Sequence record: PZ386967.1
Length of the DNA stretch: 64,000 nucleotides
Source: a phage
Reading direction: 5' to 3' (one strand)
The position numbers and the translations under genes were made by a program. Positions 2,212 through 55,307 of this stretch are shown piece by piece (the first letter of the stretch is position 1; every line of letters starts with the position of its first letter). The notes under the pieces are model-generated. The model had not been told where the DNA came from. It made no database searches and saw only the letters and a list, made by a program, of their open reading frames with translations.

Positions 2212-2263
2212 TCACTAAATATCTTTCAAATTGAGCGAAACTCTACAGAGAAGGAATAAGATT

Positions 2264-4159
2264 ATGGCAACTCAAAGCTTCAGCGTTGCGCCGTCCGTAC
2301 AGTGGACTGAGCGTGATGCCACGCTTCAGACGTCCCCATCCGTTGTTGTTCAGGGTGCGGCTGTCGGCAAATTCCAATGGGGTGAGGCAGAACTCCCTGT
2401 GTTGGTCACTGGTGGTGAAACTGGTCTGGTGAAGAAATTCTTCAAGCCAAACGATGCAACTGCCACCGACTTCTTAGTGATTGCTGACTTCCTGTCTTAC
2501 AGCTCTGTTGCATGGGTGACCCGTGTGGTCGGTCCGGCGGCACGCAACGCTGTAACCAAAGGTCAGACTGCAATCCTTATCCGCAACAAATTAGACTTCG
2601 AAACTGCGTCCCCATCTGCGTCTATTACCTGGACAGGCCGCTATGCTGGCTCTCTGGGTAACGACATTGCTGTGAACATCTGTGACGCTGCGCTGTTCCC
2701 GACCTGGGAATTCCGTAACAACTTCGCATATGCTCCGCAGGATGGCGAGTACCATATCGCCATCGTTGACAAAGTAGGTCGCATCACCGACTCTTCTGGC
2801 GCTGTTAGTCAGGTTGATCGTATCTCTGTATCCGGTACTGCCACCGCTGCTGGTTCCATCTCTGTTGCTGGTGAAGCCGTGGCGTACACTGACGCTGACA
2901 CCCCGGCGACTCTGGCGACAAAGATCGGAACTGCGCTGACGTCTCTGTCTGAAGTATATTCTTCTGTTGTCGTGAAGTCCAACACCGTCACCGTCACTCA
3001 CAAAGCAATCGGTCCTCAGGCTGCGACTGCGATTGTTCCAGACGCGAATGGCCTGACTGCTACCGCTGCCGTCACCACTGTTGGTGCTTCCGGTACGATC
3101 ATCGAGAAGTATGAACTGGTTCAGACCGCTCAGGGTTCTAAGAAATCTGATGGATCCAATGCATACTTCAAAGACGTGATCAACGGCACCTCAAATTGGG
3201 TGTACACCTTCGCCACTACCCTGGCTGCTGGTGTCATTGAACTCGAAGGTGGTGTAGACGATTACACTGGGAACCGTGTTGCGGCTATCCAGGCACTGAA
3301 CAACGCCGAAGCGTATGATGCCAAGCCAGTGTTCGGTTTCTGTGAAGAACTGATTGAGCAGCAGGCACTGATCGACCTGTCCACCGAGCGTAAAGACACA
3401 GTGTCCTTCGTGTCTCCTCTTCGCGATACGGTCGTCGGAAACCGTGGCCGTGAGATGGATGATGTTGTGGCCTGGCGTGAAAGTCTTGTTCGCGACTCCT
3501 CCTACTTCTTCATGGATGACAACTGGGCGTATGTGTACGACAAGTACAACGACAAAATGCGTTGGATTCCGGCTTGTGGCGGCACCGCAGGTGTTTGGGC
3601 GCGCAGCATTGAAATCGCGGGTATCTACAAATCTCCGGCGTTCCACAACCGTGGTAAATACAACAACTATAATCGAATGGCATGGTCTGCGTCTTCTGAT
3701 GAGCGTGCTGTGCTGTATCGCAACCAGATCAACAGCATTGTCACCTTCTCCAACGAAGGCATCGTGTTGTACGGCGACAAGACTGGCCTGACCCGCCCAT
3801 CTGCGTTCGACCGCATCAACGTTCGTGGTCTGTTCATTATGGCAGAGCAGAACATCGCAGCCATCGCCAAATACTACCTTGGTGAGAACAACGATGCATT
3901 CACTCGTGGGTTGTTCAGCAACGCTGTCCGCCCATATATCCGCCAGTTGGCCAACATGGGCGCGATCTATGACGGGATGGTGAAGTGTGATGAGGACAAC
4001 AACACTGCGGAAGTTATCGCTGCCAACCAGATGGTTGCTGGTATCTGGCTGAAGCCCGAGTACAGCATAAATTGGGTGTATCTCGACTTCGCCGCCGTTC
4101 GCCCGGACATGGAATTCAGTGAGATCGAATCCGGTGGTGGTATCGTAGCCGCTTCTTAA
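2264..4159 (+). CDS. gp18: Tail sheath protein (gp18-like)
   Basis: GKFQWG near N-terminus and C-terminal YGDKT...FDRINVRGLF resemble T4 gp18; ATG at 2264 has RBS GAAGGAA upstream (the track's 2231 start is TTG). Confidence 0.85.
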   Translation: MATQSFSVAPSVQWTERDATLQTSPSVVVQGAAVGKFQWGEAELPVLVTGGETGLVKKFFKPNDATATDFLVIADFLSYSSVAWVTRVVGPAARNAVTKGQTAILIRNKLDFETASPSASITWTGRYAGSLGNDIAVNICDAALFPTWEFRNNFAYAPQDGEYHIAIVDKVGRITDSSGAVSQVDRISVSGTATAAGSISVAGEAVAYTDADTPATLATKIGTALTSLSEVYSSVVVKSNTVTVTHKAIGPQAATAIVPDANGLTATAAVTTVGASGTIIEKYELVQTAQGSKKSDGSNAYFKDVINGTSNWVYTFATTLAAGVIELEGGVDDYTGNRVAAIQALNNAEAYDAKPVFGFCEELIEQQALIDLSTERKDTVSFVSPLRDTVVGNRGREMDDVVAWRESLVRDSSYFFMDDNWAYVYDKYNDKMRWIPACGGTAGVWARSIEIAGIYKSPAFHNRGKYNNYNRMAWSASSDERAVLYRNQINSIVTFSNEGIVLYGDKTGLTRPSAFDRINVRGLFIMAEQNIAAIAKYYLGENNDAFTRGLFSNAVRPYIRQLANMGAIYDGMVKCDEDNNTAEVIAANQMVAGIWLKPEYSINWVYLDFAAVRPDMEFSEIESGGGIVAAS

Positions 4160-4201
4160 TTTACTCCATGCCCTCTTCGGAGGGTACATTGAGGTATTGT
4201 T

Positions 4202-4504
4202 ATGAAAAGTTTTTCTCAATTTTTAGCAGAAGCAGGCCTAAAAGGTGACCTTCAGAAAGTTAAAGACTCCGTGATTGAATGGTTGGAAGACCAAGATGTA
4301 AGGCTCAAAAAGGGTGATATCGAAAATGGAGTATTTGGAGATTTCTTCCGCATAACCATTGATGATTTTGAATATACATATAATGGCAAAGAGATCAAAG
4401 TATTCGACCTGAAGAAAGATAAACAGGTTGTTAGCAAAGCTGCTGGAACTCGAGAAGCCCCAGGTGAACTCGGTAAATTGTTTAAGAAATACAGCAAAGT
4501 GTGA
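4202..4504 (+). CDS. Small basic protein with T4 internal-protein-like capsid targeting sequence
   Basis: N-terminus MKSFSQFLAE|AGL resembles T4 IP targeting sequence MKTYQEFIAE with L-x-E cleavage motif; followed by a terminator. Confidence 0.5.
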   Translation: MKSFSQFLAEAGLKGDLQKVKDSVIEWLEDQDVRLKKGDIENGVFGDFFRITIDDFEYTYNGKEIKVFDLKKDKQVVSKAAGTREAPGELGKLFKKYSKV

Positions 4505-4509
4505 CAAGA

Positions 4510-4537
4510 CCCCGCTTCGGCGGGGTTTTAAATTTTT
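4510..4537 (+). terminator. Rho-independent terminator
   Basis: Hairpin CCCCGC-TTCG-GCGGGG followed by a T-run. Confidence 0.7.
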
Positions 4538-4550
4538 CTAGATTATTTTA

Positions 4551-4578
4551 TTGAATTACTTTACTTCTTCAATAACTC
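4551..4578 (+). promoter_or_regulatory. T4-type early promoter (-35 TTTACT, 16-bp spacer, -10 TATAAT)
   Basis: Matches the repeated cassette; T4 early promoters have a GTTTAC-type -35. Conserved leader and start context follow. Confidence 0.55.
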
Positions 4579-4635
4579 ACGTATAATTCTAAACATAAGC
4601 AGTACGACACCAACTTGAAACGAAGGAACTATATC

Positions 4636-4992: not shown

Positions 4993-4998
4993 CAGTTT

Positions 4999-5025
4999 AC
5001 CCCGCTGAGGCGGGGTTTAGTTTTC
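4999..5025. terminator. Terminator hairpin between convergent genes
   Basis: ACCCCGC-TGAG-GCGGGGT followed by T-rich tract; lies between the + gene ending 4992 and the - gene ending 5017. Confidence 0.6.
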
Positions 5026-6801
5026 CAGTTCATACCGGATAAGACCACACCCCCAGATACGCCCCAACCCGGCTTCCACCGACAGCATATCCTCTGTTTT
5101 GCCTTCTATATCGTATCCAAGTTTAAGGAATTTCTCTTTCCTGAAATTGAATTTGTGTATACGTAAGCTATAGTCTGGTGTCACATATTTGTAATCAGGG
5201 GGAAGGATTTCCTTTTCAACAAATCCGTTATTCAGGTAAACATTTTTCAGACGACTGACAACACAACGATCACCAAAAGAATATACTGTCTCACCCCGAT
5301 GTCGAGCGATATAATATTTCAGCAAGCGTGAGAATGCGCCATGGCAATTGTTAGAAGCAAATCTCACCAATTCAATACCATGCACTCGTTTGGTAAACAA
5401 CATCACCGCCTGGATATTCCCAGTTTTGTCTACAAGGTGTATATAATCTGTCGCCACCACACCACCTTGTATATGGAATCGGTCGAGAAAGTCCTTGGAC
5501 GTCCTATAGGAGCCTTCCAAAATGGTATGTTGGCGAGCGTATGACAATGGTTTCCCTATCCCCAATTTTGCTTTTAGGAGTGATTTAACCACTTCCTGTT
5601 TGTCACGCCACTCATCTTCCCAGATATGGATTAATTGAATACCCTGGGATTCACAGTGCATAGTCTTTTCAAGATGGTAGTCTTTGTATCGATGTTTCTC
5701 CGAATGCCAATACAACCCATTAAATTCTATTGCCAACTTATGTTCTGGGCAGTATATGTCTATCTGGCGTGTGGTCGCCCTCCCGTCGAACATTTTACCT
5801 CTGAGGACGGAGAAATTACCAGATTCATAAACGACACCCAATGAATCCAGGTATGAACATATTTCTATTTCTGGCTGTGTTTGGCTTTGGCTGCTGGGGT
5901 ATGTGAAAGAGTTCCTATATTCTTCAGAAGAGAAATAGTGAGGTACGCCGTATTTTTCTTTTGAAATGATCCTGGTATTGGCCTGGCTTCTATCCCATAT
6001 AGCCTTTACCTTCAACGGATAATCAACCCCATATTTTAAGACGCATGTTTTCTTTCTCTTTTCTATAATGGAATTGAGGAACATTGGATGATCCACACCA
6101 TAGATCTTCCTCCAAGTCTCAATCACCCTTTCCCTCACTTCTGGCATTTTCATGACGTGTGATACGCCATAGCGTTCCATGACAGAAGCAGCCACTCTGT
6201 CCTTTATAACATCAGACTTCATAGGGTGGTCGACCCCATATTTCTTAAGGGCAGTTTCCCGTGACTTTTGTTTTACTTCTTCCAGTTGGAATATGTTGGC
6301 TACGCCATATTTCTCTGTTATGGCGTTTTCTAGGTTGGCCCGTTCTGAGCCTCCCACCTTCATTGATTCTCGTTGGCATTCTTCGGAACAAAACTTTTTG
6401 TATCTGGGCGGTTGGGCTTCCATTTCTAAGCCGACGTCAGCACCGCAAGTGGCACACTGCGACTTCGGAATATCGTACAGCCAAGCAGTTATCGCTTGTG
6501 GTTCTTCTAATAGGTCGTTGTGTGACACCACGTATCCAACAACATCAACCCCAGTATGGGCCGTGAGTAGGGGATGAGAGATAAGTTTGTAGTTCAACGA
6601 ACCATCTTTCTTCCTGAGTTTACTATCAACCCAAGAGCGGCATTCGGTTTCGGTCGTCGGGATGTCATCCAACAAACCCGGATTGCGTTTCATCGTTCCC
6701 AGCATGAATGATTTGCATTCGTCACTACAATACAACGCAGCCTTCCTGGTTGGGGTGAACGGTTTGTGGCAGCATAAACAATTTTTATCGGGGAATGGCA
6801 T
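5017..6801 (-). CDS. Free-standing homing-endonuclease-like protein: N-terminal zinc ribbon, five KYGV repeats, C-terminal PD-(D/E)XK-like nuclease domain
   Basis: CCHKPF...YCSDEC and CATCG...FCSEEC cysteine pairs; repeated ~28-aa units (EKYGVANIF, KKYGVDHPM, ERYGVSHVM, KIYGVDHPM, LKYGVDYPL, EKYGVPHYF); C-terminal IDIYCPEHKLAIEFNGLYWH...IWEDEW resembles Vsr/DUF559-type nucleases. Antisense insertion between gp18 and gp19. Likely ATG at 6801; the track starts at GTG 6816. Confidence 0.6.
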   Translation of the reverse strand: MPFPDKNCLCCHKPFTPTRKAALYCSDECKSFMLGTMKRNPGLLDDIPTTETECRSWVDSKLRKKDGSLNYKLISHPLLTAHTGVDVVGYVVSHNDLLEEPQAITAWLYDIPKSQCATCGADVGLEMEAQPPRYKKFCSEECQRESMKVGGSERANLENAITEKYGVANIFQLEEVKQKSRETALKKYGVDHPMKSDVIKDRVAASVMERYGVSHVMKMPEVRERVIETWRKIYGVDHPMFLNSIIEKRKKTCVLKYGVDYPLKVKAIWDRSQANTRIISKEKYGVPHYFSSEEYRNSFTYPSSQSQTQPEIEICSYLDSLGVVYESGNFSVLRGKMFDGRATTRQIDIYCPEHKLAIEFNGLYWHSEKHRYKDYHLEKTMHCESQGIQLIHIWEDEWRDKQEVVKSLLKAKLGIGKPLSYARQHTILEGSYRTSKDFLDRFHIQGGVVATDYIHLVDKTGNIQAVMLFTKRVHGIELVRFASNNCHGAFSRLLKYYIARHRGETVYSFGDRCVVSRLKNVYLNNGFVEKEILPPDYKYVTPDYSLRIHKFNFRKEKFLKLGYDIEGKTEDMLSVEAGLGRIWGCGLIRYELEN

Positions 6802-6882
6802 AATAAATATCCTCACTTTGGAGTATTTTAACCCCCATTTATTTCAAAACTAAATATTTACACTATTCAGAGGAGAACGACC

Positions 6883-7416
6883 ATGGCTACAGTTAATGAA
6901 TTCAGAGCAGCTATGTCACGCGGGGGTGGCGTTCAGCGCCAACACCGCTGGCGTGTGACTGTTAACTTCCCTTCCTTCGTGGCTGGAAGCGATACCATCC
7001 GTGATGTTTCGCTGTTGGCGGTGACCACAAATACCCCAACAGGCCAGCTCGGGGAGATACTCGTCCCATGGGGTGGTCGTGAACTTCCATTCCCAGGTGA
7101 CCGTCGTTTTGAGGCTCTGCCTGTAACGTTTATCAACGTTGTGGACAACGCCCCGTACAACGCATTCGAAGTCTGGCAGCAGTACATCAACGGCAGCAAC
7201 AACAACCGTGCGTCTGCTAACCCAGATGATTATTTCCGTGATGTAATCATGGAACTGCTGGATGCGAATGACAATGTCACCAAGACCTGGACCCTTCAGG
7301 GCGCCTGGCCTCAGAACCTCGGTCAGCTGGAACTGGACATGTCTGCAATGGACTCTTATACTCAGTTCACTGTTGACCTGCGTTACTTCCAGGCCATTTC
7401 AGACAAGTCTCTCTAA
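6883..7416 (+). CDS. gp19: Tail tube protein (gp19-like)
   Basis: C-terminal LQGAWPQNLGQLELDMSAMDSYTQFTVDL resembles T4 gp19 IKGLWPTNVGELQLDWDSNNEIQTFEVTL; RBS GAGGAG. Confidence 0.8.
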   Translation: MATVNEFRAAMSRGGGVQRQHRWRVTVNFPSFVAGSDTIRDVSLLAVTTNTPTGQLGEILVPWGGRELPFPGDRRFEALPVTFINVVDNAPYNAFEVWQQYINGSNNNRASANPDDYFRDVIMELLDANDNVTKTWTLQGAWPQNLGQLELDMSAMDSYTQFTVDLRYFQAISDKSL

Positions 7417-7482
7417 TGTCCTCAGTGCTGGGGGATCTATATTCCCCCTCACTAATTACAAGAAAATGTTGAGGACTTAATC

Positions 7483-9177: not shown

Positions 9178-9214
9178 TTCGACTAAGTATAGAAAACATT
9201 TAGAGGATATGAAC

Positions 9215-9385
9215 ATGGCCGCTATCGATCTGGTAAAAGCAATCATCGCTGGTGATACTGATGCCGCTGCTGCTGAATGCGAAATGGAGCTGTCCGCTCG
9301 CGCCCAAGAACTGGTCCAGCAGGGTACTGAATATGTCTTGAACTCCCTGAGCCAAGACATGGGTCCTTTCGGCGACGACCAGTAA
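9215..9385 (+). CDS. gp67: Prohead core protein (gp67-like), small acidic
   Basis: Position between portal and gp68; small Ala/Glu-rich protein; ATG 9215 has the best RBS spacing (GAGGA, 7 nt). Confidence 0.45.
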   Translation: MAAIDLVKAIIAGDTDAAAAECEMELSARAQELVQQGTEYVLNSLSQDMGPFGDDQ

Positions 9386-10379: not shown

Positions 10380-10424
10380 ATTCAGCCTCACTAAATACTG
10401 AAAATCGTTCAGAAGGAAACAATC

Positions 10425-11276: not shown

Positions 11277-11358
11277 TTTTAGCAGCCACAGCCCTCGAAA
11301 GGGGGCTTGATTTTGAACTACTAAGTAATTTCAACTTAACTGAATATCAATGTAAGGA

Positions 11359-15261: not shown

Positions 15262-15302
15262 CATATCATAAATAATTTGAGTACACACAGCGGAGATACA
15301 TC

Positions 15303-15473
15303 ATGTTTGTCGTCATCAATCTGTTCTGCTATATCTTCACGGCGTACTTCTTGGGCGCGGTATGGATCGAGACCTACAATGACCTGAAGGATGGGGAATA
15401 CGCCAACCGAATGGTTTATGTCAAGAAGTTTGTTCGTAAGTTCTGGTCCAACTTCGTTTACAAACTACCATGA
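15303..15473 (+). CDS. Small hydrophobic protein (56 aa)
   Basis: MFVVINLFCYIFTAYFLGAVWI transmembrane-like; stop overlaps the next ATG (ATGA). Confidence 0.3.
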   Translation: MFVVINLFCYIFTAYFLGAVWIETYNDLKDGEYANRMVYVKKFVRKFWSNFVYKLP

Positions 15474-16240
15474 TCCCTAAATACCCCCATCATCCATGGG
15501 GGTATTTTCTTATGAACGCACAGATCTATGACGCCCTATCGCAGGGCAACGCCTTTACCAATCCTCTCCCGTCCCTCAGCAGCGCCTCACAGGGGTTAAT
15601 CACCAGTGGTAAGGCGACTACAGCGTCACTGGCTAACACCGGAAATACGCAGATTCAGGAAGCGCTGACGGCAGGTGGGTTGACTACAGCCAAACTCAAC
15701 GAATCTACGGCGATGTTCGACTCAGCAAACACCAGCATCACCACGCTGATCAACTATGGCGACCAGTCAGTGAACGAGGCATATTCCCGCATCGGTACAT
15801 CTGTGTCGTATAAGTCCGCCCTGAAGTCTATAGGTCGAGAACCGAACAACTGTGATCTGATCAATAATGCATTTGGGGTTATTCAGAACCTCGGCAAACA
15901 GTGGATCAATACCATGCAAAGTGTTCTCACAACTATCACAAACAAGATGAATGAGTTGGCTGAATTGGTAGCTCAGGGTGTCAGTGCTGGTCTTGATGCT
16001 ATTCGGGCACTGGCTGCTGAAGTTACTCAGGCCATCGACACTGCTGTCGCATCAGTAGCCTCTATTGCTCAGGACATCACGAACGGTATTGCAGCAGAGT
16101 TAGCCCATATCCAAGACATGGTTGGTAAGTGTCTTAACTTCTCTTTTGCCAACGTGATCTCAGAGTGGGCGAAAGATATCTGCGCCGGAGGTGTCATCAA
16201 CAGCATTGGTTCCGATAATCTGAAGAACGCACTGAAGTAA
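15470..16240 (+). CDS. Hypothetical protein (256 aa), Ser/Thr/Ala-rich; function unknown
   Basis: Long ORF, start coupled to the preceding small ORF. Confidence 0.45.
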   Translation: MIPKYPHHPWGYFLMNAQIYDALSQGNAFTNPLPSLSSASQGLITSGKATTASLANTGNTQIQEALTAGGLTTAKLNESTAMFDSANTSITTLINYGDQSVNEAYSRIGTSVSYKSALKSIGREPNNCDLINNAFGVIQNLGKQWINTMQSVLTTITNKMNELAELVAQGVSAGLDAIRALAAEVTQAIDTAVASVASIAQDITNGIAAELAHIQDMVGKCLNFSFANVISEWAKDICAGGVINSIGSDNLKNALK

Positions 16241-17932: not shown

Positions 17933-18679
17933 ATGGCATCTCTCCAGGATCTACGCAAGCTGAATGACTTCGAAAACCGCCATTACACATTCCAGCAGTA
18001 CGAACTTCCTTACAAGGAACTGGAGTGTGTGACGACGGAAAACGGTCGTCATTATGTATCGCCGACTGGCGTCAAGCTGACATCCGTCACGACTATGCTG
18101 GGGCGTACTGGTGATCATGAATGGCTTGAGGCTTGGAGGAAGAAGCTAGGTGCAGAGGCCGCCGACCTTGAGACCATGCGTTGCGCTGACCGAGGGGAGA
18201 AGCTGCACCTTGCATGCGAACTGTATTTGAAGAACCGCCCAATGAAAGAAGTGTTGGAAGCGGCTGGCGAATACATGTTCATGTTCAAGCAGCTGTTCCC
18301 CTATCTGAACAAGATGACAAAGATCTATGCTCAGGAGATCCCATTATACAGCGAGGTGCTTGGTCTTGCAGGTCGAGTGGACCTTATTGGGATTTATGAG
18401 GGTAAACCTGCTATCATCGACTTCAAGACATCGAACATTATGAAGACGCGGGGAATGATCGAGGACTACAGTATCCAGCTGTGCTTATATTCGGTCATGT
18501 TCCAGCAGATGTTCGGTGTCAAGATCACCCGCCTCATCAATGTGATCGCCAACGAGTCTTCCCCTCTACCAACCGTCATTGAGTTCAACCGTGATGACAT
18601 CCTGACAAAGATGTTTGAGCGTGTTCGTCTGTACCATCGCATGGATAAAGAACAGAACGGAGTCTGGCCAGATCACTAA
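17933..18679 (+). CDS. Putative PD-(D/E)XK-family nuclease
   Basis: GRVDLIGIYEGKPAIIDFKTS resembles the D...E-x-K core of RecB/Cas4-like nucleases; between uvsY and uvsW. Confidence 0.4.
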   Translation: MASLQDLRKLNDFENRHYTFQQYELPYKELECVTTENGRHYVSPTGVKLTSVTTMLGRTGDHEWLEAWRKKLGAEAADLETMRCADRGEKLHLACELYLKNRPMKEVLEAAGEYMFMFKQLFPYLNKMTKIYAQEIPLYSEVLGLAGRVDLIGIYEGKPAIIDFKTSNIMKTRGMIEDYSIQLCLYSVMFQQMFGVKITRLINVIANESSPLPTVIEFNRDDILTKMFERVRLYHRMDKEQNGVWPDH

Positions 18680-18707
18680 ATACCCCATAATTCTTGGGAG
18701 ATTTTGT

Positions 18708-20947: not shown

Positions 20948-21616
20948 ATGCAAGAGATCACTCTCTCCGAACGTACACTTCAGTTGCTGGCCAACTTTGA
21001 GACCATCAACCCATCTATCGTCCTGACACCGGGTAAGATGCTGCGCAGCATTAACGATTCGTCTACTGTTATCGCCGTGGCACAGATCGAAGAAGACTTC
21101 CCGTTTGAGTTCCCTATCCTGGACCTGACCAAACTTCTGGCCATCCAGCGCCTGCCTTCCTTCAAAGGTGGTAAAGCCGAATTCCATCAGGACTACATCC
21201 TGTTGAAAGGCGAAAACTCTCAGCTGCAATTCTGGCGTTCTGCTAAAGAACTCACTGTTGTTCCGGCTGACACCATTGAACTGCCGTCTGTCGACTTTGA
21301 AGCGATCATCACTCCAGAGAAGATGAAAGAACTGACCCGCGCCTGTTCTACCCTCGGACACAAGACTGTGCGCCTGGTTGCTCAGGGTGGCAAAACTCGC
21401 CTGGTTGCAACCACCACTACCCTGGACAACTCCAACAACTACACTGTTGAGCTGGGCGAAACCGCGCTGCCGGACTTCGTAATGCCGCTGGATGTTGCCA
21501 ACCTGAAAATGATCGAAGGCAACTACACTCTGCGTGCCTGTGCTGATCTACAGATGGTGAACTTCCAATCATCCGACGCGACGATCAATTACTTCGTCGG
21601 CGCACAGATTGAGTAA
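20948..21616 (+). CDS. gp45: Sliding clamp (gp45-like)
   Basis: N-terminus LQLLANFETINPSIVL matches T4 gp45 ALLKNFATINSGIML; size 222 aa versus 228. Confidence 0.8.
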   Translation: MQEITLSERTLQLLANFETINPSIVLTPGKMLRSINDSSTVIAVAQIEEDFPFEFPILDLTKLLAIQRLPSFKGGKAEFHQDYILLKGENSQLQFWRSAKELTVVPADTIELPSVDFEAIITPEKMKELTRACSTLGHKTVRLVAQGGKTRLVATTTTLDNSNNYTVELGETALPDFVMPLDVANLKMIEGNYTLRACADLQMVNFQSSDATINYFVGAQIE

Positions 21617-21634: not shown

Positions 21635-21673
21635 CTATAATGTGTGGGCGGGGCGTTCCCCGCCTATTTGAAA
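21635..21673 (+). promoter_or_regulatory. Promoter -10 (TATAAT) followed by 5'-leader stem-loop
   Basis: TATAAT at 21635-21640, then GGCGGGG-CGTT-CCCCGCC hairpin and CTATTTGAAATG, the same hairpin-leader arrangement seen at 33273 and 33832. Confidence 0.4.
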
Positions 21674-21696
21674 TGATTCTTCTACACGAGGCTGAA

Positions 21697-22686
21697 ATGT
21701 CTAATATCACTATCGTTTCCGACCAGTACGCATGGGAAAACAAGTACCGCCCTGACAACCTGGACGAGATTATCATCCCTCAAGACGTCCGCGCTAAAAT
21801 CCATGGCTACATCACCAGCGGCAACGGCAACATCCCGTCTATGCTGTTCTACTCCCCTCAGCCTGGTACTGGCAAGACTACCTCCGCCCTGGCCGTGTGT
21901 AATGAAATCGGTTGTAAGCAACCACTGATGATCAACGCATCCCTGGACAACAGCATCGACGTTATCCGTGACCGCGTGATTCAGTACTCTACTGGTGTGA
22001 GCGTATTCGGTGGTCGCAAAGTCGTTATCCTCGACGAAGTAGAGCGTCTGTCTATGGCGGCACAGGAGTCGCTGAAGGGTATTGTGGAGAAGGTCTCCAA
22101 GAACTGTTCATTCATCCTGACCACCAACGCCAAGCAACGTGTGAACGAACCTCTGCGCTCTCGTTGCCGTGAAATCGACTTTATCTGGAATGAGGCTGAG
22201 GCTGATGAGGTAAAACTTCAGTTCATGCGCCGCTGTGCTGAAATCCTTCGCTGCGAAGGTGTTGAGTATGACCCTCCTGTGTTGGCTGCTATTGTCAAGC
22301 GCCATTTCCCTGATAACCGCCGCATCATGGGTGTTCTACAGGATAACGTCACCACTTACGGCAAGATCGACGAACGTGCACTGGCTGTGTTAAAATCGGC
22401 CGATATGGGCATGTTGGTGAATATGTTGAAGGATAATGACTGGGCTGGGATGAAGCAGTGGGTGACCGACAACCAGAACTATATCACTGAAGACTTCTAT
22501 TCCCGCTTCTTCCAGTTCTGTGTACCACAGGATAAAGAGAAGCAAATGTTGGTTCAGAATGAGTCTATCCCTGATCTGGTATGCGTGTGTGGTCAGTCTC
22601 AGATTGAACACCGTCAGGTCGGCGATGTCTGGCTGCATGCTGTGTATTTCCTGACCAACGTCATGCTCAACATCAAGTGGAAGTGA
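21697..22686 (+). CDS. gp44: Clamp loader large subunit (gp44-like AAA+ ATPase)
   Basis: YRPDNLDE, SPQPGTGKTT (Walker A), VVILDEVERL, SRCREIDF (SRC motif) align with T4 gp44. Confidence 0.85.
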   Translation: MSNITIVSDQYAWENKYRPDNLDEIIIPQDVRAKIHGYITSGNGNIPSMLFYSPQPGTGKTTSALAVCNEIGCKQPLMINASLDNSIDVIRDRVIQYSTGVSVFGGRKVVILDEVERLSMAAQESLKGIVEKVSKNCSFILTTNAKQRVNEPLRSRCREIDFIWNEAEADEVKLQFMRRCAEILRCEGVEYDPPVLAAIVKRHFPDNRRIMGVLQDNVTTYGKIDERALAVLKSADMGMLVNMLKDNDWAGMKQWVTDNQNYITEDFYSRFFQFCVPQDKEKQMLVQNESIPDLVCVCGQSQIEHRQVGDVWLHAVYFLTNVMLNIKWK

Positions 22687-22690: not shown

Positions 22691-23113
22691 ATGGCCGCCC
22701 TTGGATTGTTCGATTACCTGTCTGCTCTGAACAGCAGCAAAGAAAACCTTCTGCGGACTGATGACCCAGAAGTGTTGAAAGGATTCGACCCGTTTATGAC
22801 GCGGCGTGGTTTAGCTCAGAGCAAAGACACTCTAGTGACCGCTCAGCAGATGAACAAACTGCATGCTGTTACTCCATGGATGCAATGGTCATATGCCTTT
22901 CACACCATTCCGGCGCGGAAACGCTACGACAAATGGTCTAAGAAAGGTCCGATTGATCCTGACGTGAAGTTACTCTCCGAGTACTTCTACATCAGCATGG
23001 AGAAGGCATCCGAGTACGTCCGTTTCTTGCCGAAGGAAGTCCTGGCCGAAATACGCGAGAAGATGAGACGCACTGAGCTGAACGCCAAAGCGAAACCGCG
23101 CAAGGCTAAGTAG
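22691..23113 (+). CDS. gp62: Clamp loader small subunit (gp62-like)
   Basis: Follows gp44; PARKRYDKWSKK resembles T4 gp62 PRGKRYGKWAK. Confidence 0.6.
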   Translation: MAALGLFDYLSALNSSKENLLRTDDPEVLKGFDPFMTRRGLAQSKDTLVTAQQMNKLHAVTPWMQWSYAFHTIPARKRYDKWSKKGPIDPDVKLLSEYFYISMEKASEYVRFLPKEVLAEIREKMRRTELNAKAKPRKAK

Positions 23114-41441: not shown

Positions 41442-41449
41442 TATTTATA
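41442..41449 (-). promoter_or_regulatory. T4-type late promoter (TATAAATA) on minus strand
   Basis: Exact TATAAATA (plus-strand TATTTATA) upstream of the minus-strand gene. Confidence 0.5.
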
Positions 41450-41990: not shown

Positions 41991-42782
41991 ATGGGAATGA
42001 ACTTCGTGGACAGAGGGGAGAATGTCGTCAAATATTTCACGGACGAAGACAACGAGCGTGTCATTAGTATCCTTCGTGATTGGATCCCCGCCCGCAAGAA
42101 AGCACTTGCTGAGGGCACCAGGCTTCCAAAGATCCCCAACTATGTTGCTCTGCAGGTCCAGCGCATCATCACCAAGATGAGTACCCGCTACAACTATCGC
42201 GACTATCCCTTCCGTGAAGACATGGTCTCTGAAGCAATAGTCAACATCCTGCGCTACCTCCACACCTTTGACGTCGAACACATTGGAAAGAAAGGGAAGA
42301 TCAACTTCTTCTCTTGGGTGACCATGTGCGCTGATCGATCATTCGCTCGTAAACTGAATATCGAAGAAGAACACACGTACATCAAATTGCGCTCATTTGA
42401 AGAGGCGGGTGGGTTCGCAGGCCTGGCAGACGATCCCGACTTCCAACAAGAGATCTTTGTTGACGCGACAGGGATTGGTATGGACTTCCGTGAGCGTATC
42501 GGTAACTTTGAGAACAAAAAGGACGCTCAAAGGCAGAAGGAGCGAGAGAAGGTGGAGGCGGCTCGTCTCGCAGAATCGAATAAAAAGATTGCGAAAGGCA
42601 TACTTCAATACATGGCGCAGGCTAAGAATACGGTAACAGCGCAGGCCGAAGACAATTCAGATCAGGACTTTGGCAAAACCCAATTCAATCTGGAAGATGA
42701 TATCTGTGCGATGGAACCAGATTGGGAAGCCCTCAAACAAAGATTAGAAGAACGGGAGAAAAAGAATAATGGCGATTGCTAA
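41991..42782 (+). CDS. gp55: Late sigma factor (gp55-like) with acidic/coiled C-terminal extension
   Basis: ISILRDWIPARKKALAEG...MVSEAIVNILRYLHTFDVEH...FFSWVTMCADRSFARKL parallels T4 gp55 LQAIIDWKTEL...[20 protein letters not shown]...AYITQACFNAFVQRIKK. Confidence 0.7.
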   Translation: MGMNFVDRGENVVKYFTDEDNERVISILRDWIPARKKALAEGTRLPKIPNYVALQVQRIITKMSTRYNYRDYPFREDMVSEAIVNILRYLHTFDVEHIGKKGKINFFSWVTMCADRSFARKLNIEEEHTYIKLRSFEEAGGFAGLADDPDFQQEIFVDATGIGMDFRERIGNFENKKDAQRQKEREKVEAARLAESNKKIAKGILQYMAQAKNTVTAQAEDNSDQDFGKTQFNLEDDICAMEPDWEALKQRLEEREKKNNGDC

Positions 42783-46980: not shown

Positions 46981-47077
46981 GGCTGAAGGGCACTAAATAT
47001 CACGTGCCCTTTATCTTTTAACCCCTGTCAGGAGGCTCAAGCGAGCTGCAAGTCGACAAAACATAAGGAACGCCATC

Positions 47078-48712: not shown

Positions 48713-48734
48713 TTTGAACCGAAGGAACTATATC

Positions 48735-49070: not shown

Positions 49071-49145
49071 GATAAGGGGGCTGACGCTCCCTTTTGGTTT
49101 CGCTAATTAGAAGAAACCGCCGTTAATTCAATCAGGAGATATAAA

Positions 49146-52130
49146 ATGTCAAAGCCAAGTTTCCTCCAGTTCATGCAGGAAAGAGATCAGTTGGACGAAG
49201 CGTTCAACTCCGCTCCGTATGAGCTGACCATGGGTAAGAAGAACGCAGGCGATGTGTTCTTCACCTTCGTCGACGAAGATGATAAGGAATACCGCATTCA
49301 GTTCTATACTCCTCAGGGACTGGGCAAGAGCGTTCGTCAGGTTTTCATCGGCCAGAAGCGCGGCTCCGTCTATCCTGACGCCATCGCTCGCTTCAAGAAC
49401 CCAATGCGCGTTATTGCTTCCATGATCGAAGCGACCAAACAATTCATGGCGACTCCTCTGGGCAAAACTATCGATGGCTATGCTGTCAACTTCTCGAAGA
49501 AAGCGCTGGATCGCGGTATGACCCTGATTCCTAAGATCATCCGCCAGTCCGGTCTGAAGCAGAAACTGAATGTCATGGACCTGACCTACGCGCCTGTCCC
49601 TGACCGTGGTTATGTGTGGCTAGTTCGTAAGGGCAAAGATCCGGCTCAGGTATTCGACGGTCCGAAGATGCAGGGTATCACCTGGGATGATCCAGACAAG
49701 GTCGGTGACGTTCCGGTTCAGAACAATACTCCGGATGTGGGTGTGTCATCTTCTGTTGATAATTCCAACGGATGGAAATTAACTTCAAACGGGGATCAGC
49801 CCATGTTGATATGGGCTGGTAAGGAGAGAGGCCGCACGAATACGGCAAATATCGCTCCCCACTACAATGAGCCGGGCGTGTATGTTGGCGCATACATGAA
49901 TGAGAAACCTGTGCGTGGGCAAAGTGCTGATTTCATTGCTCGTCAGTTGAAATTACCACAAGTCCCTATCAGTATCCTGAATGATTTCACCACGGCGTCC
50001 ACAAAATTTTGGAAAGGTTCTCAACAGAAATCTGCGCCTGTTGTGCCGGCAGGTTCGGACAGAAATAACCCAGCCAACATTATCGGTTCTGGAACTGCTG
50101 TTATTGATGCCAAACGGCTTGGTGCTCAGGAAGTAAACGTGGAACGATTCAAAAACGGCGTTCGCATGCGTTCTCGAAACGGTGACGTCGACATCAGTAT
50201 TTCTGACCCAGACTTTTCAAATGCAGCAAGTGCGGCTGATGCTGCCACAGCCTCTGTTGTGGTCAAGAACGGGCGTTACGAAGGTGCCATCAATTCAAAG
50301 CGCAAGATTGCCCGCACCTCGAACGAGCAGGGTACTGAATGGGATATCATCGGTGTCAACGGGGAAACCCTTGTCTCTATCAAGTTGAACAAAGTGTCTA
50401 AATCCACATCAGATTCGACCGAGGGTGCAACCAGTGTTGATCAATTACGTGACAGCGGTTTCATCGCTCGTGTTCTGGGTATCATTGATACCAACGTTGG
50501 GCTGGACACTTCTATTCTTCCTGGTGAAAACATCCGTCGCGTGGGCGCTGGTCGTTACACGACGGCAGGCGGGTTGGTTATCGTTGTCAACTTCACAAAC
50601 GTCCTCGCTGGTTTCGTTCAATACTCAGTTTTCAGCGAAATTGCTGAAGAGGAGAACGTGGCCAAAGGTAGCGCCCGTGACGTCGCCAAGGCGGTAATTG
50701 CGTCCATCTTTGAGGTTGCTAAGACCCAGTACACTGGCAAATGGGAAATTAGCGCAGTGCCAACAAGCGCTCCATATCCTATCAAAGCCATTCGCCGTTC
50801 TCGGGGCTGGGGTTATGTGGAAACCGCAAACTGGACTCTGACAGTGTCCGACGCTGTCCTGAATCGTGTGAAGCCAGGGAACACTGCTCTACTGGAACTC
50901 ATCAAAGAACCTCCGCGTGGCAAGCACCCGCTGGAAATCATCCCAGAGAAGGGCGACAAGACCCTGATGCTGAAAGATCGTATCACCGGGGCCATCTATG
51001 GTTCTATCGACCTGAATGCCCAAGGCGCTGATCTGGTCAACTCTGGAACCCTGAAGATACCAAGCAACGCCATGGTGTTTGGTGAGACTGTCAACGGTAT
51101 GTCCATTCGGTGGGATGTCAATTTCCCCGAAACGGGAAAATACGCCGGTACTTCTATGATAACCAACGTGACCTATTACTACGACAAAGGTAAAGTTGCA
51201 TTCACCCCAATTGTCTCTCAGAAAGGGCGTACCCTGAACAATCCGAAGACATATGAACTTCCTTTAAACAAAGATATGGTCCAGAGTGTGATTGATGAGA
51301 TTTCATCAAAAATGGTATATCTTTCCAGAAACCTCCAACAGTTGAAAAGTCAGTCATACAACCCAAACCAGGTGTTCTTGAACGATATAACCATCACGGA
51401 TAAAGGTGAAGTGATTTGGAATGATTACAACTTGTCTGACGGCAAAGTTACACAAATTATGCTGTCCATGATAAGCGCAGAAAATAAACGCCTGGAGAAA
51501 GTAGCAAACACGCCGGATATCAATATCACATTGCCCAAGAAACAAGCTGAAGTGGTAGAATTTATAAACCGGATGATCGATGTCGATCTCACCCCTTATG
51601 TGAGAACCCCCAAAAAACGTGATGTGGTATTATTTGACTCTTCTGAATTGTCGATAAACCAACTCAACAACATAGAACGCCTGGGAAGAGAAACAGGAAA
51701 ATGGTCTCTTCAGCCAAACGGTGGTATGGGTCATGCACTACTTCTGAAAAGCACGTCGCACAATCCGAAGGACGACCTTGCGGCATACGCCGACTCCATT
51801 CGCGACAACGCACCAAAAGGTCGCGACCTGGATTGGCAGATCTATGCAAGCCGTGATGGTCAGACTCTGAACGTGGACTGGGATATCACCTTCCGCCGCA
51901 ACACAACTGAAGGGGCATATCGCGAGTTCAAAGCTCAGATTGACCGCGCCAACCAGTACCTGCAGACACTGTACCGGGATGCGAAGTCCAAGGGTTACAA
52001 CCCGACTGAACCAAACCTGATGACTCTGGATAGCGCCCAGCAGTCTGACCAGTGGGCACGAGACTACGGGGAAGGCGCATACAGCGAGTACGAGCAGTCC
52101 CTGGGTGGCAACATGCAGATTAAGATCTGA
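49146..52130 (+). CDS. Large (994 aa) protein with internal-protein-like N-terminal capsid targeting sequence; candidate packaged/injected protein
   Basis: N-terminus MSKPSFLQFMQERDQLDE|AF resembles the T4 targeting sequence with L-x-E cleavage motif; RBS AGGAGA; no catalytic family recognised. Confidence 0.55.
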   Translation: MSKPSFLQFMQERDQLDEAFNSAPYELTMGKKNAGDVFFTFVDEDDKEYRIQFYTPQGLGKSVRQVFIGQKRGSVYPDAIARFKNPMRVIASMIEATKQFMATPLGKTIDGYAVNFSKKALDRGMTLIPKIIRQSGLKQKLNVMDLTYAPVPDRGYVWLVRKGKDPAQVFDGPKMQGITWDDPDKVGDVPVQNNTPDVGVSSSVDNSNGWKLTSNGDQPMLIWAGKERGRTNTANIAPHYNEPGVYVGAYMNEKPVRGQSADFIARQLKLPQVPISILNDFTTASTKFWKGSQQKSAPVVPAGSDRNNPANIIGSGTAVIDAKRLGAQEVNVERFKNGVRMRSRNGDVDISISDPDFSNAASAADAATASVVVKNGRYEGAINSKRKIARTSNEQGTEWDIIGVNGETLVSIKLNKVSKSTSDSTEGATSVDQLRDSGFIARVLGIIDTNVGLDTSILPGENIRRVGAGRYTTAGGLVIVVNFTNVLAGFVQYSVFSEIAEEENVAKGSARDVAKAVIASIFEVAKTQYTGKWEISAVPTSAPYPIKAIRRSRGWGYVETANWTLTVSDAVLNRVKPGNTALLELIKEPPRGKHPLEIIPEKGDKTLMLKDRITGAIYGSIDLNAQGADLVNSGTLKIPSNAMVFGETVNGMSIRWDVNFPETGKYAGTSMITNVTYYYDKGKVAFTPIVSQKGRTLNNPKTYELPLNKDMVQSVIDEISSKMVYLSRNLQQLKSQSYNPNQVFLNDITITDKGEVIWNDYNLSDGKVTQIMLSMISAENKRLEKVANTPDINITLPKKQAEVVEFINRMIDVDLTPYVRTPKKRDVVLFDSSELSINQLNNIERLGRETGKWSLQPNGGMGHALLLKSTSHNPKDDLAAYADSIRDNAPKGRDLDWQIYASRDGQTLNVDWDITFRRNTTEGAYREFKAQIDRANQYLQTLYRDAKSKGYNPTEPNLMTLDSAQQSDQWARDYGEGAYSEYEQSLGGNMQIKI

Positions 52131-52154
52131 TCATTGAAAGCCCCTTCGGGGGCT

Positions 52155-52162
52155 TATAAATA
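52155..52162 (+). promoter_or_regulatory. T4-type late promoter (TATAAATA)
   Basis: Exact TATAAATA 26 nt upstream of the ATG at 52188. Confidence 0.5.
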
Positions 52163-52187
52163 ACTGAAATCCCCGAGGAGAGATCCA

Positions 52188-52493: not shown

Positions 52494-52578
52494 GTGAAAC
52501 CATCAAGATGACTCTTGTCAAGCCATGATCATAATCCCCCTTAAATACAGGGGGATTTCTTTTTCTGAGGACAACATC

Positions 52579-52932
52579 ATGGTCAATGCGAGTATTTTCA
52601 TCAACCGTGGACTGCTTGCTATAGCCCACTCTCATGCCTTGCACTTCGTTACAACATCCTATGCCAAGCACAAGGCACTCGGGGAGTTCTACGGGGAATT
52701 GGAGGGCTTGCTGGACACGTTTACCGAAGCATACATCGGTGCGGGTGGTCAGTATGTTCCATCATTCGAGAATATCAAATTGTACAACCCAGACCCTATC
52801 TCCTATATTAACAGTGTGGTGATAGACGTCGATGGCATCTACAAGCAGTGTGACTCCCACCTTCAGAGCACTCTTGACGATATCAAGACACTGTGCTACC
52901 AGACGATCTACAAACTGAAGCAGCTGTCGTAA
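52579..52932 (+). CDS. Hypothetical protein (117 aa)
   Basis: Internal ATG of the track ORF with RBS GAGGA 8 nt upstream. Confidence 0.4.
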   Translation: MVNASIFINRGLLAIAHSHALHFVTTSYAKHKALGEFYGELEGLLDTFTEAYIGAGGQYVPSFENIKLYNPDPISYINSVVIDVDGIYKQCDSHLQSTLDDIKTLCYQTIYKLKQLS

Positions 52933-53175
52933 GTCAATACGAAATAAAGGCATATAATTTTGCTCATTATTCGCCAAAAGGAAAGGACAATGAGCAAAAT
53001 CTTTACCCCGACACATGCGCAGCTACATGAATCTCTTGGACGGCTTCGCCCACTTCGAGCGCAACACGGCTGATAAACAGAATATATTGTATGGGGCTTG
53101 ACGACAACTGTGTATAGCTCAAAGTCGTGATGTAGACTATACTGTGACCGAAGTGTTCCAGAGGCAGAAGATCTA

Positions 53176-54237: not shown

Positions 54238-54440
54238 CATTAGAAGAACTGAACAAACTGGACGACGGAGAGATCTTGCGGGGGTACTTGAAATCTCGTG
54301 AGGGATATGTCCTATCTGGGGAAGAGTCTCCGAGTTTCATCCACGGCTGGAAGAATGGTCAGGTGGACTTCCATGGGGTTCCCATCAGTGCTGAGCAAGC
54401 CGAATTGGCTCGCGAGTTTGTAAGATTTCGCCCGAACTAA
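54234..54440 (+). CDS. Hypothetical protein (68 aa)
   Basis: Start overlaps the primase stop (ATGA). Confidence 0.4.
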   Translation: MTLEELNKLDDGEILRGYLKSREGYVLSGEESPSFIHGWKNGQVDFHGVPISAEQAELAREFVRFRPN

Positions 54441-54468
54441 AACTTTTTACTTCACATTACTTCCATCC

Positions 54469-54563
54469 AGGCCTCATTCGACGAGGCCTTTTAAAATACT
54501 TCAAAAATAATTTTAAAAAATTATTGAAAAAGACTTTACTCTTCAATAATGATGCACTATTAT
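54469..54563 (+). promoter_or_regulatory. Terminator followed by AT-rich region and T4-type early promoter
   Basis: Hairpin AGGCCTC-ATTCGAC-GAGGCCT with T-run; -35 TTTACT 54535-54540, 17 bp, -10 TATTAT 54558-54563. Confidence 0.55.
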
Positions 54564-54636
54564 AGTTCACATAGGGCGGTAACACACCGCCGAATGAAAA
54601 GTGAAATGAACCAACTACATTATGAGGAATTACATC

Positions 54637-55125
54637 ATGGCTACCACCAAAACTCTGATCACCAACGGCACCATCTCTTTCGAACTGAACACCGAAGTTG
54701 CTAAAGTTGAAATGTTCCGCATCGCTCAGGCAGCTGGCTTCACTGGTGGCAAAACTTCCTTCATGAACCTGCTGAACGGTAAAGTGAAAGCGACTAACGG
54801 CTTCACCCTGGTAGAGCAGGTTGTGGTTGATAAAGCTGTGGTTGCTAAGACTGCCGACAAAGTTGGTATGCTGAAAAACCTGGGTCACGACATCCACATT
54901 GTCGAAGCAAGCACCGAAACTTACGGCACCATCGTAGTCGGTAAAGGTCGCATCCAGCTGAACCCGCTGAACAACGGTTCCTTCTCTGTGATGGTCTTCC
55001 CTAAGAAGGGGTACGACAACACCGACATCGTGAAAGCTGTTGGCGGCGAAGCAAAAGCTCAGTACGTCAAAATGGGTAAACTGAGCGCCGACGCAGTTGA
55101 AGCTCTGGTGAACAAACTGGCTTAA
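54637..55125 (+). CDS. Hypothetical protein (162 aa), likely early gene
   Basis: Early promoter cassette and RBS GAGGA upstream; Ala/Val/Lys/Thr-rich composition. Confidence 0.5.
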   Translation: MATTKTLITNGTISFELNTEVAKVEMFRIAQAAGFTGGKTSFMNLLNGKVKATNGFTLVEQVVVDKAVVAKTADKVGMLKNLGHDIHIVEASTETYGTIVVGKGRIQLNPLNNGSFSVMVFPKKGYDNTDIVKAVGGEAKAQYVKMGKLSADAVEALVNKLA

Positions 55126-55307
55126 TCCAGACGTGTAACATAGGGGAGGCAACTCCCCCTATCAGGTCTTTGGAGGAGATCGCAGTCATTCAATCCTCTT
55201 TGGTGCTCTCTGGGTTGCTGACACATCCAGAACAAAGTCTCCCCCAGCTCCTCGAGTAGTTCACTTTCACTTTAAATACCTCTGCATTCATTGTGGAGGT
55301 ATTTCTT

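Follow-up and report, generated by a model that had tools for sequence, protein, structure and literature searches.

The window analysed here is a 64,000-nucleotide stretch from an Ackermannviridae phage (Aglimvirinae, Agtrevirus-like) that is 96-97% identical to Escherichia phages ZQ1, A221 and AV101. By computation we obtained a short motif, its placement and conservation, the hairpins fused to it and the presence of protein factors that might read it; its 7-mer core marks about 17 sites in the window and about 35 in AV101. Among the head and tail genes, all on the plus strand, CACTAAATA provides candidate late promoters at 2213-2221, 42 nt before the ATG of gp18 (tail sheath, 2264), where it is kept in Vi01, RC-2014, May and phiMAM1, and at 10389-10397, 27 nt before the ATG of gp22 (scaffold, 10425), where it is identical in six of the six genomes compared. 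The candidate for gp19 (tail tube) is CTAAATA at 6850-6856, 26 nt before the ATG at 6883; the equivalent site reads CTAATTA in relatives and CTAAATA in phiMAM1, and the region upstream of gp19 has been remodelled by an endonuclease-like ORF (5017-6801, minus strand). The first-pass annotation had listed CTAAATA 26-43 nt upstream of these three genes, together with motifs before uvsW and the endolysin gene; all of them are present at the positions it gave. It was mistaken, however, in holding that gp23 (major capsid protein) has no such element, since the variant CTAAGTA lies at 11321-11327, 40 nt before the gp23 ATG at 11368, and the orthologous phiMAM1 site is CTAAATA. This CTAAGTA sits directly 3' of a terminator-like hairpin (11290-11307). 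A CTAATTA variant at 7452-7458 is the candidate for gp20 (portal, ATG 7483), with CTAAATA again at the orthologous position of phiMAM1, and CTAAGTA at 9183-9189 precedes a 56-aa ORF (9215-9385, an orf190 homologue) whose orthologous site is CTAAATA in Vi01, May and phiMAM1. The latter copy stands at the head of the gp68-like/gp21 block.

Further sites are spread over the rest of the window, on the plus strand unless stated. ATAAATA at 15268-15274, also found at the same site in AV101, lies 28 nt before a 56-aa ORF (15303-15473), and CTAAATA at 15477-15483 is joined to a hairpin, AAAUACCCCCAU/AUGGGGGUAUUU (the whole spanning 15477-15509), before the ATG at 15512 of a gene assigned to Pfam DUF7217; the 3' arm of this hairpin, which is kept in five genera, holds the Shine-Dalgarno sequence of the gene. 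The candidate promoter of uvsW (helicase), CACTAAATA at 18674-18682, lies 25 nt before the ATG at 18708 and is kept in all genera compared, in a leader with a weak hairpin over the Shine-Dalgarno sequence that is stronger in Vi01. In T4, uvsW is a late gene; a motif before it is no oddity here. On the minus strand, TATAAATA at 41442-41449 lies 35 nt before the ATG (41406) of a Vi01_105 homologue, the Vi01 orthologue having TATAAGTA. CTAAATA at 46993-46999 occupies the loop of a terminator-like hairpin, GAAGGGCAC/GUGCCCUU with a U-run (46988-47019), which is conserved in Vi01 and lies 78 nt before an ATG at 47078, and CTAATTA at 49103-49109, CTAAATA at the orthologous phiMAM1 site, lies 36 nt before the ATG (49146) of a gene for a 994-aa protein. 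A terminator (49074-49093) ends directly 5' of this copy. Then follow TATAAATA at 52155-52162, 25 nt before a 101-aa ORF (ATG 52188), and TTAAATA at 52541-52547, which a terminator scan and folding place in a terminator hairpin loop (52533-52557) 31 nt before an ATG at 52579, and which is CTAAATA in AV101 and Vi01. The endolysin gene, whose product carries the Pfam domains Muramidase and PG_binding_1, is preceded by TTTAAATA (55271-55278), 29 nt before its ATG at 55308 and joined to a hairpin, AAAUACCUCUGCA/UGUGGAGGUAUUU (55271-55304), that covers its Shine-Dalgarno sequence and that phiMAM1 keeps with a different stem.

Two sites are uncertain: CTAAGTA at 23106-23112, inside the end of the gp62 gene and 30 nt before the regA ATG (23143), and TTAAATA at 61902-61908, inside the ORF preceding a 116-aa ORF (ATG 61940) and 31 nt from that ATG. 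Since the element has only 7 nt and two relaxed positions, single sites may be false, possible cases being these two (23106 and 61902) and two copies inside genes, at 47580 and 63333. Copies also precede genes that are not expected to be late, namely regA in the window and the DNA polymerase gene in AV101. When upstream regions were compared across genera, a clear copy was absent before some virion genes, for instance gp3 and gp25; at a suitable distance gp3 has only a CACAA(A/G/T)TA-like sequence, a looser match that we did not count as a site.

A position matrix was built from 35 AV101 sites, for which the search pattern itself dictated T-11, A-10, A-9, T-7 and A-6. Position -12 is C in 20 of these, A in 7, T in 6 and G in 2; position -8 is A in 29, G in 3 and T in 3; and the predicted +1 is A in 23. 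Because there is no conservation upstream of -13, the element has no -35 counterpart. The working consensus is thus C>A/T at -12 followed by TAA(A>G/T)TA and a preference for A at the predicted +1; its fuller form is (A/C)-C-T-A-A-A-T-A, where -12 is C>A,T and -8 is A>G,T. The first-pass annotation had counted just two exact TATAAATA elements in the window, which we confirm (41442-41449 and 52155-52162), but its view of the motif as a degenerate TATAAATA does not hold, as the lineage has a consensus of its own that favours C at -12. Its proposal of a relaxed NTAAATA core captures the relaxation at -12 (C>A,T>>G) and is incomplete at -8, which is relaxed as well (A>G,T), so that NTAAATA misses gp23, gp20, the 56-aa ORF at 9215 and the gene for the 994-aa protein. 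The motif holds the same position in Kuttervirus Vi01, Limestonevirus RC-2014, Taipeivirus May and Miltonvirus phiMAM1, giving five genera in all, and in the gp18 leader of phiMAM1 the motif is kept and little else is conserved. Orthologous sites exchange CTAAATA for CTAAGTA, CTAATTA or TATAAATA; at the orthologue of the TATAAATA at 52155 Vi01 has gCTAAATA, so A and C interchange at -12.

Over the window as a whole the excess of CTAAATA is modest (8 copies against 3.4 expected from dinucleotide shuffles, 3 of 100 of which reach 8; 7 of the 8 copies lie on the plus strand), while its excess by position is strong. The -70 to -12 zones of predicted starts hold 10 of the 21 copies of TAAATA, the top enriched 6-mer there (p 2.5e-9), and of 28 matches in the window to NTAAATA or CTAA[G/T]TA, 18 have a Shine-Dalgarno sequence and start codon 15-70 nt downstream, where 4.2 are expected (p 3.6e-9). 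Enrichment before genes in a complete genome, which the first-pass annotation had put forward as a check, was found in AV101: there, 13 of 18 copies of CTAAATA lie 15-70 nt upstream of a same-strand start (0.6 expected, p 1e-15), as do 4/4 copies of TATAAATA and 6/15 of CTAA[G/T]TA. The AV101 targets comprise gp18, gp19, gp20, gp22, gp23, gp14, gp6, gp48, gp4, gp54, gp2, gp5, vriC, four tail-spike or fibre genes, the endolysin gene and uvsW.

The window also encodes homologues of proteins that serve late transcription in T4. The presumed late sigma factor is a 263-aa gp55 homologue (41991-42782, plus strand) that matches phrog_234, 'late sigma transcription factor', with E 3.4e-52, gives tblastn matches to annotated gp55 of cyanophages, nt-1 and KP15, and is also annotated in AV101. 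BLASTP gave no direct link to T4 gp55, phmmer none to PDB chains, and there was no Pfam match; the protein is tied to the gp55 family through PHROGs, tblastn to intermediate phages and a multiple alignment, in which it is about 17% identical to the 185-aa T4 protein, from which it differs by a long C-terminal extension. Residues of the T4 base pocket are partly conserved (N13, R57, F86, T99), and the substitutions at pocket positions are L54M, H95F and Y97W, compared with L54F, R57H and T99S in gp55 of Aeromonas phage Aeh1. We looked for a pocket substitution common to the two lineages with C at -12, Aeh1 and the Ackermannviridae, and rejected this idea: only L54 is replaced in both, by different residues. 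A gp45 sliding-clamp homologue (20948-21616, plus strand) is identified by the annotation of AV101, Vi01 and May and by a weak Pfam gp45-slide_C match below the cut-off; clamp-loader genes follow it (21640-22686 and 22691-23113), and the AV101 annotation lists gp33 at 59707-59952, which falls outside the window.

Roughly one site in three has the motif in the 5' arm or loop of a hairpin that is predicted to mask the ribosome-binding site or to work as a terminator. A stable hairpin covers the Shine-Dalgarno zone in 12 of 34 motif-bearing leaders and in 9 of 165 others (Fisher p 1e-5), and the same genes bear hairpins in other genera. The hairpin at 15477 folds with a dG of -17.2 kcal/mol (z -4.4), whereas the predicted late RNA, from 15489, reaches only -4.5; the corresponding values for the endolysin hairpin at 55272 are -16.1 kcal/mol (z -6.5) and -1.2, and the hairpin at 46993 has a dG of -14.6 kcal/mol (z -5.5). 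Evidence of covariation is confined to phiMAM1 against the other genomes and to differences between paralogous sites, the stems of the DUF7217 hairpin being invariant among the nine close relatives found with the DUF7217 protein.

These observations bear on three other ways of accounting for the motif. Chance clustering of an A/T-rich word within A/T-rich intergenic DNA would fit the modest excess in the window, 8 copies against 3.4, and intergenic DNA is generally rich in A/T words, as pooled permutations of the motif reach 10.8% against a background of 3.6%. CTAAATA nevertheless ranks first among 105 words of the same composition in AV101, at 72% against that pooled 10.8%; its one-mismatch control words are not enriched (CTAAAT[CGT] 0/17, CTAAA[ACG]A 3/29), it is oriented with respect to the downstream gene (13 sense against 2 antisense), and it is conserved across genera at fixed positions. 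Contradicted by the composition and mismatch controls, chance is rejected as a full explanation and we regard it as extremely improbable. It is likewise very unlikely that the motif is just A/T-rich sequence flanking intrinsic terminators or RNA hairpins (AAAUACCCC...GGGGUAUUU), conserved for RNA structure only. The copies at 15477, 46993, 52541 and 55272 do lie in or beside strong hairpins followed by U-runs, and the annotators of phage May labelled the DUF7217 site a terminator; most sites, however, including gp18, gp19, gp20, gp22, gp23, gp48, gp5 and vriC, have no significant hairpin, the conserved C and T at -12 and -11 fall outside the stems, the 3' arm has no conserved complementary base following UAUUU, and at two sites the motif is in the loop and not in the stem. 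The hairpin-free sites, the strand bias and the C and T outside the stems lead us to reject this as the whole explanation, although in the hairpin-linked subset part of the AAATA conservation could come from stem pairing and not from sigma recognition.

The third alternative is a promoter or operator read by a factor other than gp55, either host sigma-70 through a -10-like box or another phage factor. In its favour, TAAATA looks like a -10 hexamer and the gp55 homologue is very diverged, has its long extension and was assigned by sequence similarity. We nonetheless judge it very unlikely: upstream of the motif neither a -35-like nor an extended -10 element is conserved, the same genome has a separate sigma-70-like class, TTCAAT-N14-TATAAT (7 matches against 0.22 expected), the targets are virion and lysis genes, Aeh1 pairs the same C(-12) variant with a diverged gp55, and the T4 pocket residues named above are partly retained. 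The first-pass suggestion of a late-promoter variant read by a gp55-type sigma found support in every sequence test that we ran, namely positional and strand enrichment, mismatch and composition controls, conservation over five genera, a link to virion and lysis genes, and the occurrence of gp55 and gp45 homologues in the window and of gp33 in AV101. CTAAATA close upstream of tail, head and lysis genes is, judged on these grounds, almost certainly the late-gene promoter of this ViI-like (Ackermannviridae) phage, and its identification as the -12 to -6 core of this phage's late promoters, the best explanation as a whole, appears highly probable.

The element resembles the T4 late promoter, TATAAATA, in being a single -10-like element at -13 to -6 with no -35, in sharing TAAATA, in preceding virion and lysis genes, in the presence of gp55, gp33 and gp45 homologues, and in that exact TATAAATA is used at some sites here too (41442, 52155). 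It differs in that -12 is mostly C where T4 has A, -13 is a base other than T, G or T is tolerated at -8, and the segment downstream of the box is C-rich and not A/T-rich. The A at -12 is the base that T4 gp55 flips into its pocket (PMC7892883), and a second, independent lineage with C in its place would make a useful test of how gp55-type sigma factors read DNA. The first such lineage is Aeh1, of a different family (Straboviridae), whose late promoters were described as 'CTAAATA beginning at -12' (Nolan et al. 2006, PMC1524935; also PMC2988020): the 7-mer is identical, in the same register, and was found in silico before late-gene orthologues in a phage with a diverged gp55. C is the commonest -12 base in AV101 as well.

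An 11-mer, CTAAATAcCcc, reportedly goes back to Adriaenssens et al. 2012 in Arch Virol ('Viunalikevirus'). Its matches in the window are at 15477 (CTAAATAccccc) and 18676 (CTAAATAcccca), and it covers only the hairpin-linked subset, whereas the functional core would be the 7-mer; the 'cCcc' tail corresponds to the hairpin 5' arm and is not necessarily part of sigma recognition. The 11-mer is quoted as a regulatory motif of ViI-like phages, with five copies listed for EspM4VN (PMC7283392). Our late-promoter reading agrees with these published in-silico conclusions, and since the CTAAATA variant has already been described for ViI-like phages and Aeh1, the first-pass finding is correct but not new and, as given, adds nothing to the existing literature. 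A literature search for Ackermannviridae transcriptomes or transcript 5'-end maps found none.

Taking T4 as a guide to promoter activity and to the position of +1, we infer that host core RNA polymerase carrying the gp55-type sigma (41991-42782) would open DNA at the -10-like element without a -35, probably assisted by the gp33 homologue and the gp45 clamp, and would start about 6 nt downstream of the motif, mostly at A. Each block of head, tail, tail-spike, baseplate or lysis genes has its own copy, which usually stands just behind or within an intrinsic terminator. At roughly one site in three, AAATA and the C-rich -5 to -1 segment form the hairpin 5' arm, and the 3' arm (GGGGUAUUU or GGAGGUAUUU) holds the Shine-Dalgarno sequence. 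With that sequence paired, read-through RNA from upstream would, we propose, be terminated or untranslatable, while RNA from the late promoter, lacking the 5' arm, would be translatable.

In T4 genes e, soc, 49 and I-TevI, too, the ribosome-binding site is sequestered by a hairpin whose 5' strand contains a late promoter, and the gene e leader of Aeh1 has no apparent RNA structure (PMC3014915). As in T4 gene e, the box here overlaps the 5' arm, a lysis enzyme gene is among the targets, and a predicted late RNA without the 5' arm would leave the Shine-Dalgarno sequence free; at 15477 and 55272 the 5' arm lies upstream of the predicted late start, and translational gating is predicted for both. 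The endolysin differs from that of T4 in belonging to another enzyme family (PF11860 muramidase), the stems here are followed by U-runs and so may also terminate transcription, and the layout, known here from folding predictions, extends to roughly one late promoter in three (tail spikes, gp14, DUF7217, endolysin). We put forward tentatively, at slightly less than even odds, that CTAAATAcCcc combines the late-promoter core with the 5' arm of a read-through-silencing hairpin, that the insulation is systematic and genome-wide, and that C(-12) reflects a remodelled gp55 pocket (L54M, Y97W). If so, about a third of the late promoters would lie inside a terminator or ribosome-binding-site lock, with the box in a terminator loop as a second layout, a genome-wide scheme as against the few isolated cases of T4.

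This group of phages is widely used in biocontrol and therapy (Salmonella, E. coli O157, Dickeya, Klebsiella). A correct late-promoter consensus would permit proper operon maps for the Ackermannviridae, help to pick late-expression sites for engineered payloads and correct start-codon calls such as that of the DUF7217 gene of AV101, whose annotated start sits upstream of the gene's own putative promoter.

In megablast searches, the Escherichia phages ZQ1, A221, PC3 and AV101 match the first 20 kb of the window at 96-97% identity and ViI-like phages of Dickeya, Shigella, Salmonella, Klebsiella and Serratia match at lower identity, so that the window is a section of the genome of an Agtrevirus-like phage (Ackermannviridae, subfamily Aglimvirinae). 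It spans the large terminase, the head, tail and replication genes and the endolysin, as far as gp5, and according to the AV101 annotation it includes genes for a gp55-type late sigma factor (41991-42782) and a gp45 clamp (20948-21616).

CTAAATA, which we read as the -12 to -6 core of candidate late promoters, occurs 8 times in the window against 3.4 expected. This is only a modest excess, yet the copies are placed non-randomly: no 6-mer is more enriched than TAAATA between -70 and -12 of predicted start codons, where 10 of its 21 copies lie (p 2.5e-9), and, by an annotation-free criterion, 18 of the 28 matches to NTAAATA or CTAA[G/T]TA are followed 15-70 nt downstream by a Shine-Dalgarno sequence and a start, where 4.2 are expected. 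The motif observation made in the first-pass annotation is confirmed, as are its count of two exact TATAAATA elements in the window and its five named sites, before gp18 (2213-2221), gp19 (6850-6856), gp22 (10389-10397), uvsW (18674-18682) and the endolysin (55271), with correct start-codon spacings of 25-42 nt.

The whole-genome enrichment check suggested at that stage was run in AV101, assembled as a complete genome (156,759 bp, 199 annotated genes), by counting how many copies of a word have a start on their own strand 15-70 nt downstream. Of the 18 CTAAATA copies, 13 do (0.6 expected, p 1e-15), as do all 4 copies of TATAAATA and 6 of the 15 of CTAA[G/T]TA; for the controls CTAAAT[CGT], CTAAA[ACG]A and CTA[CGT]ATA, the figures are 0 of 17, 3 of 29 and 2 of 12. 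CTAAATA ranks first among 105 words of equal composition (72% against a pooled 10.8%), followed by its own shifted versions or members of the early TTCAAT promoter class, and sense and antisense copies in upstream zones stand at 13 to 2. Coding sequence makes up 92% of the genome, yet only about 3 of the 18 copies lie truly within a gene. Given this placement, word rank and sense bias, the motif is not equally frequent within coding regions, the outcome that the first-pass annotation had set against its own reading.

The motif or a one-base variant lies upstream of the AV101 genes gp18, gp19, gp20, gp22, gp23, gp14, gp6, gp48, gp4, gp54, gp2, gp5 and vriC, of four tail-spike or fibre genes, and of the endolysin, uvsW and several small ORFs; the upstream regions of the tight-operon genes gp21, gp13 and gp15-17 lack it. 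Since uvsW is a late gene in T4, its presence fits this pattern. When orthologous upstream regions were compared in Vi01 (Kuttervirus), RC-2014 (Limestonevirus), May (Taipeivirus) and phiMAM1 (Miltonvirus), the motif was found at the same position before gp18, gp22, uvsW, gp14, DUF7217 and the endolysin, and in the phiMAM1 gp18 leader it is retained with little else conserved. Sites with a variant in the window phage show the consensus in another genus: CTAAGTA at gp23 and CTAATTA at both gp20 and the gene for a 994-aa protein (ATG at 49146) are CTAAATA in phiMAM1, CTAAGTA at a 56-aa ORF (9215) is CTAAATA in Vi01, May and phiMAM1, and TATAAATA at 52155 and 41442 corresponds in Vi01 to gCTAAATA and TATAAGTA, respectively. 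Because of these exchanges, gp23, which had been described as lacking an element, is no exception, and the relaxed positions are -12 and -8. A position matrix built from 35 AV101 sites has C 20, A 7, T 6 and G 2 at -12, A 29, G 3 and T 3 at -8, a C/T-rich segment from -5 to -2, and no conservation upstream of -13; 23 of the 35 have A as the predicted +1 base.

The extended form CTAAATAcCcc reportedly goes back to Adriaenssens et al. 2012; the 2011 papers on the ViI-like phages AG3 and CBA120 had not yet found the element. PMC7283392 names two regulatory motifs for the ViI-like group, this one and TTCAAT[N14]TATAAT, and Aeromonas phage Aeh1 has late promoters with CTAAATA from -12 on and a diverged gp55 (Nolan et al. 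2006, PMC1524935), as restated in the review by Geiduschek and Kassavetis (PMC2988020). A literature search for 5'-end mapping or a transcriptome in Ackermannviridae found none. In view of the Aeh1 and ViI-like reports, the finding is correct yet already known, published as an in-silico inference. The relaxed late-promoter interpretation is supported once it is corrected for a consensus that prefers C, for -8 as a second relaxed position and for the inclusion of gp23. Of more interest than the known motif are the -12 pocket question and the hairpin architecture.

T4 gp55 recognises the non-template strand of the open complex, flipping A-12, A-9 and A-8 into pockets lined by N13, L54, R57, F86, H95, Y97 and T99 (PMC7892883). 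The window protein is assigned to the gp55 family by its match to phrog_234 (E 3.4e-52) and by tblastn hits to gp55 of P-SSM2, nt-1 and KP15; neither BLASTP nor phmmer links it directly to T4 gp55, and pocket residues were compared in an alignment via intermediate sequences. In this alignment the window homologue retains N13, R57, F86 and T99 and carries L54->M, H95->F and Y97->W, Aeh1 gp55, the other C(-12) user, carries L54->F, R57->H and T99->S, and position 54 is L in every A(-12) user aligned. This pattern would suit a remodelled -12 pocket, although it is no more than suggestive. The homologue is 263 aa long (185 aa in T4), with an acidic C-terminal extension of ~55-80 residues past the segment aligned to the T4 clamp-binding tail (42600-42782). 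For the Vibrio members of Ackermannviridae, gp55 identity is about 35%. In ViI-like phage DNA the thymidines are partly hypermodified, with a possible effect on how T-11 and T-7 are recognised.

When all AV101 motif-to-ATG leaders were folded, 11 sites emerged as a distinct subclass with a stable hairpin (z <= -3.8), in which AAAUA and the C-rich bases from -5 to -1 form the 5' arm, and the 3' arm, GGGGUAUUU or GGAGGUAUUU, contains the Shine-Dalgarno sequence and immediately precedes the AUG. With a predicted start 6 nt past the box, the late RNA would be left without the 5' arm and with almost no structure. The window members of this subclass are the DUF7217 gene (15477; -17.2 kcal/mol, versus -4.5 kcal/mol for the late RNA with its predicted +1 at 15489) and the endolysin (55272; -16.1 versus -1.2 kcal/mol, predicted +1 at 55284). 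The 5' arm also accounts for 'cCcc' at the end of the published 11-mer. Shine-Dalgarno-zone hairpins occur in 12 of 34 motif-bearing leaders versus 9 of 165 others (p 1e-5), and Vi01, May and phiMAM1 have hairpins at the same genes, with partly different stems. Boxes also lie within terminator hairpin loops (46993 and 52541) or directly after a terminator (gp23 and the 994-aa gene). The T4 genes e, soc, 49 and I-TevI follow the same promoter-hairpin logic (PMC3014915), although the arrangement is apparently used much more widely here. Which late genes carry a Shine-Dalgarno hairpin varies by genus, which suggests that the arrangement has been repeatedly gained and lost. The AV101 gp5 leader folds into no significant hairpin; that of phiMAM1 (comparison sequences L006/L017) has complementary arms, ACCCTGA...TCAGGGT, a candidate pairing over the Shine-Dalgarno sequence. 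In the AV101 annotation the DUF7217 gene begins with the ATG that corresponds to 15470 and lies upstream of the gene's own box and hairpin (15470-15514); Vi01, RC-2014, May and phiMAM1 instead keep the start at 15512.

The second published motif, TTCAAT-N14-TATAAT, has 7 copies at <=1 mismatch in the window (57074-57099, 13001, 21616, 25809, 29733, 41805 and 52933) against 0.22 expected. The perfect copy, upstream of nrdA, has a GC-rich hairpin, CGCCGCC...GGCGGCG, between its hexamers, so that terminators may contain early-type promoters as well. Eight small ORFs on the + strand share a near-identical 23-nt leader, TGAAAnGnAGGAACTATATC-ATG (4616, 13278, 14070, 33299, 33858, 48417, 48715 and 61202), with 0 expected by shuffling. 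It looks like a common 5'UTR and translation-initiation cassette and could be a regulator binding site; the ORFs behind it are probably early genes. Between gp18 and gp19 lies a 594-aa endonuclease-like ORF on the - strand (5017-6801, within the region 5017-6861), whose RC-2014 counterpart is a homing endonuclease and which replaces the gp19 upstream region of AV101, Vi01 and May. The new gp19 junction carries a palindrome, CTAAATATTTAC, that supplies CTAAATA to gp19 on the + strand and, on the - strand, a GTAAATA located 53 nt before the endonuclease ORF.
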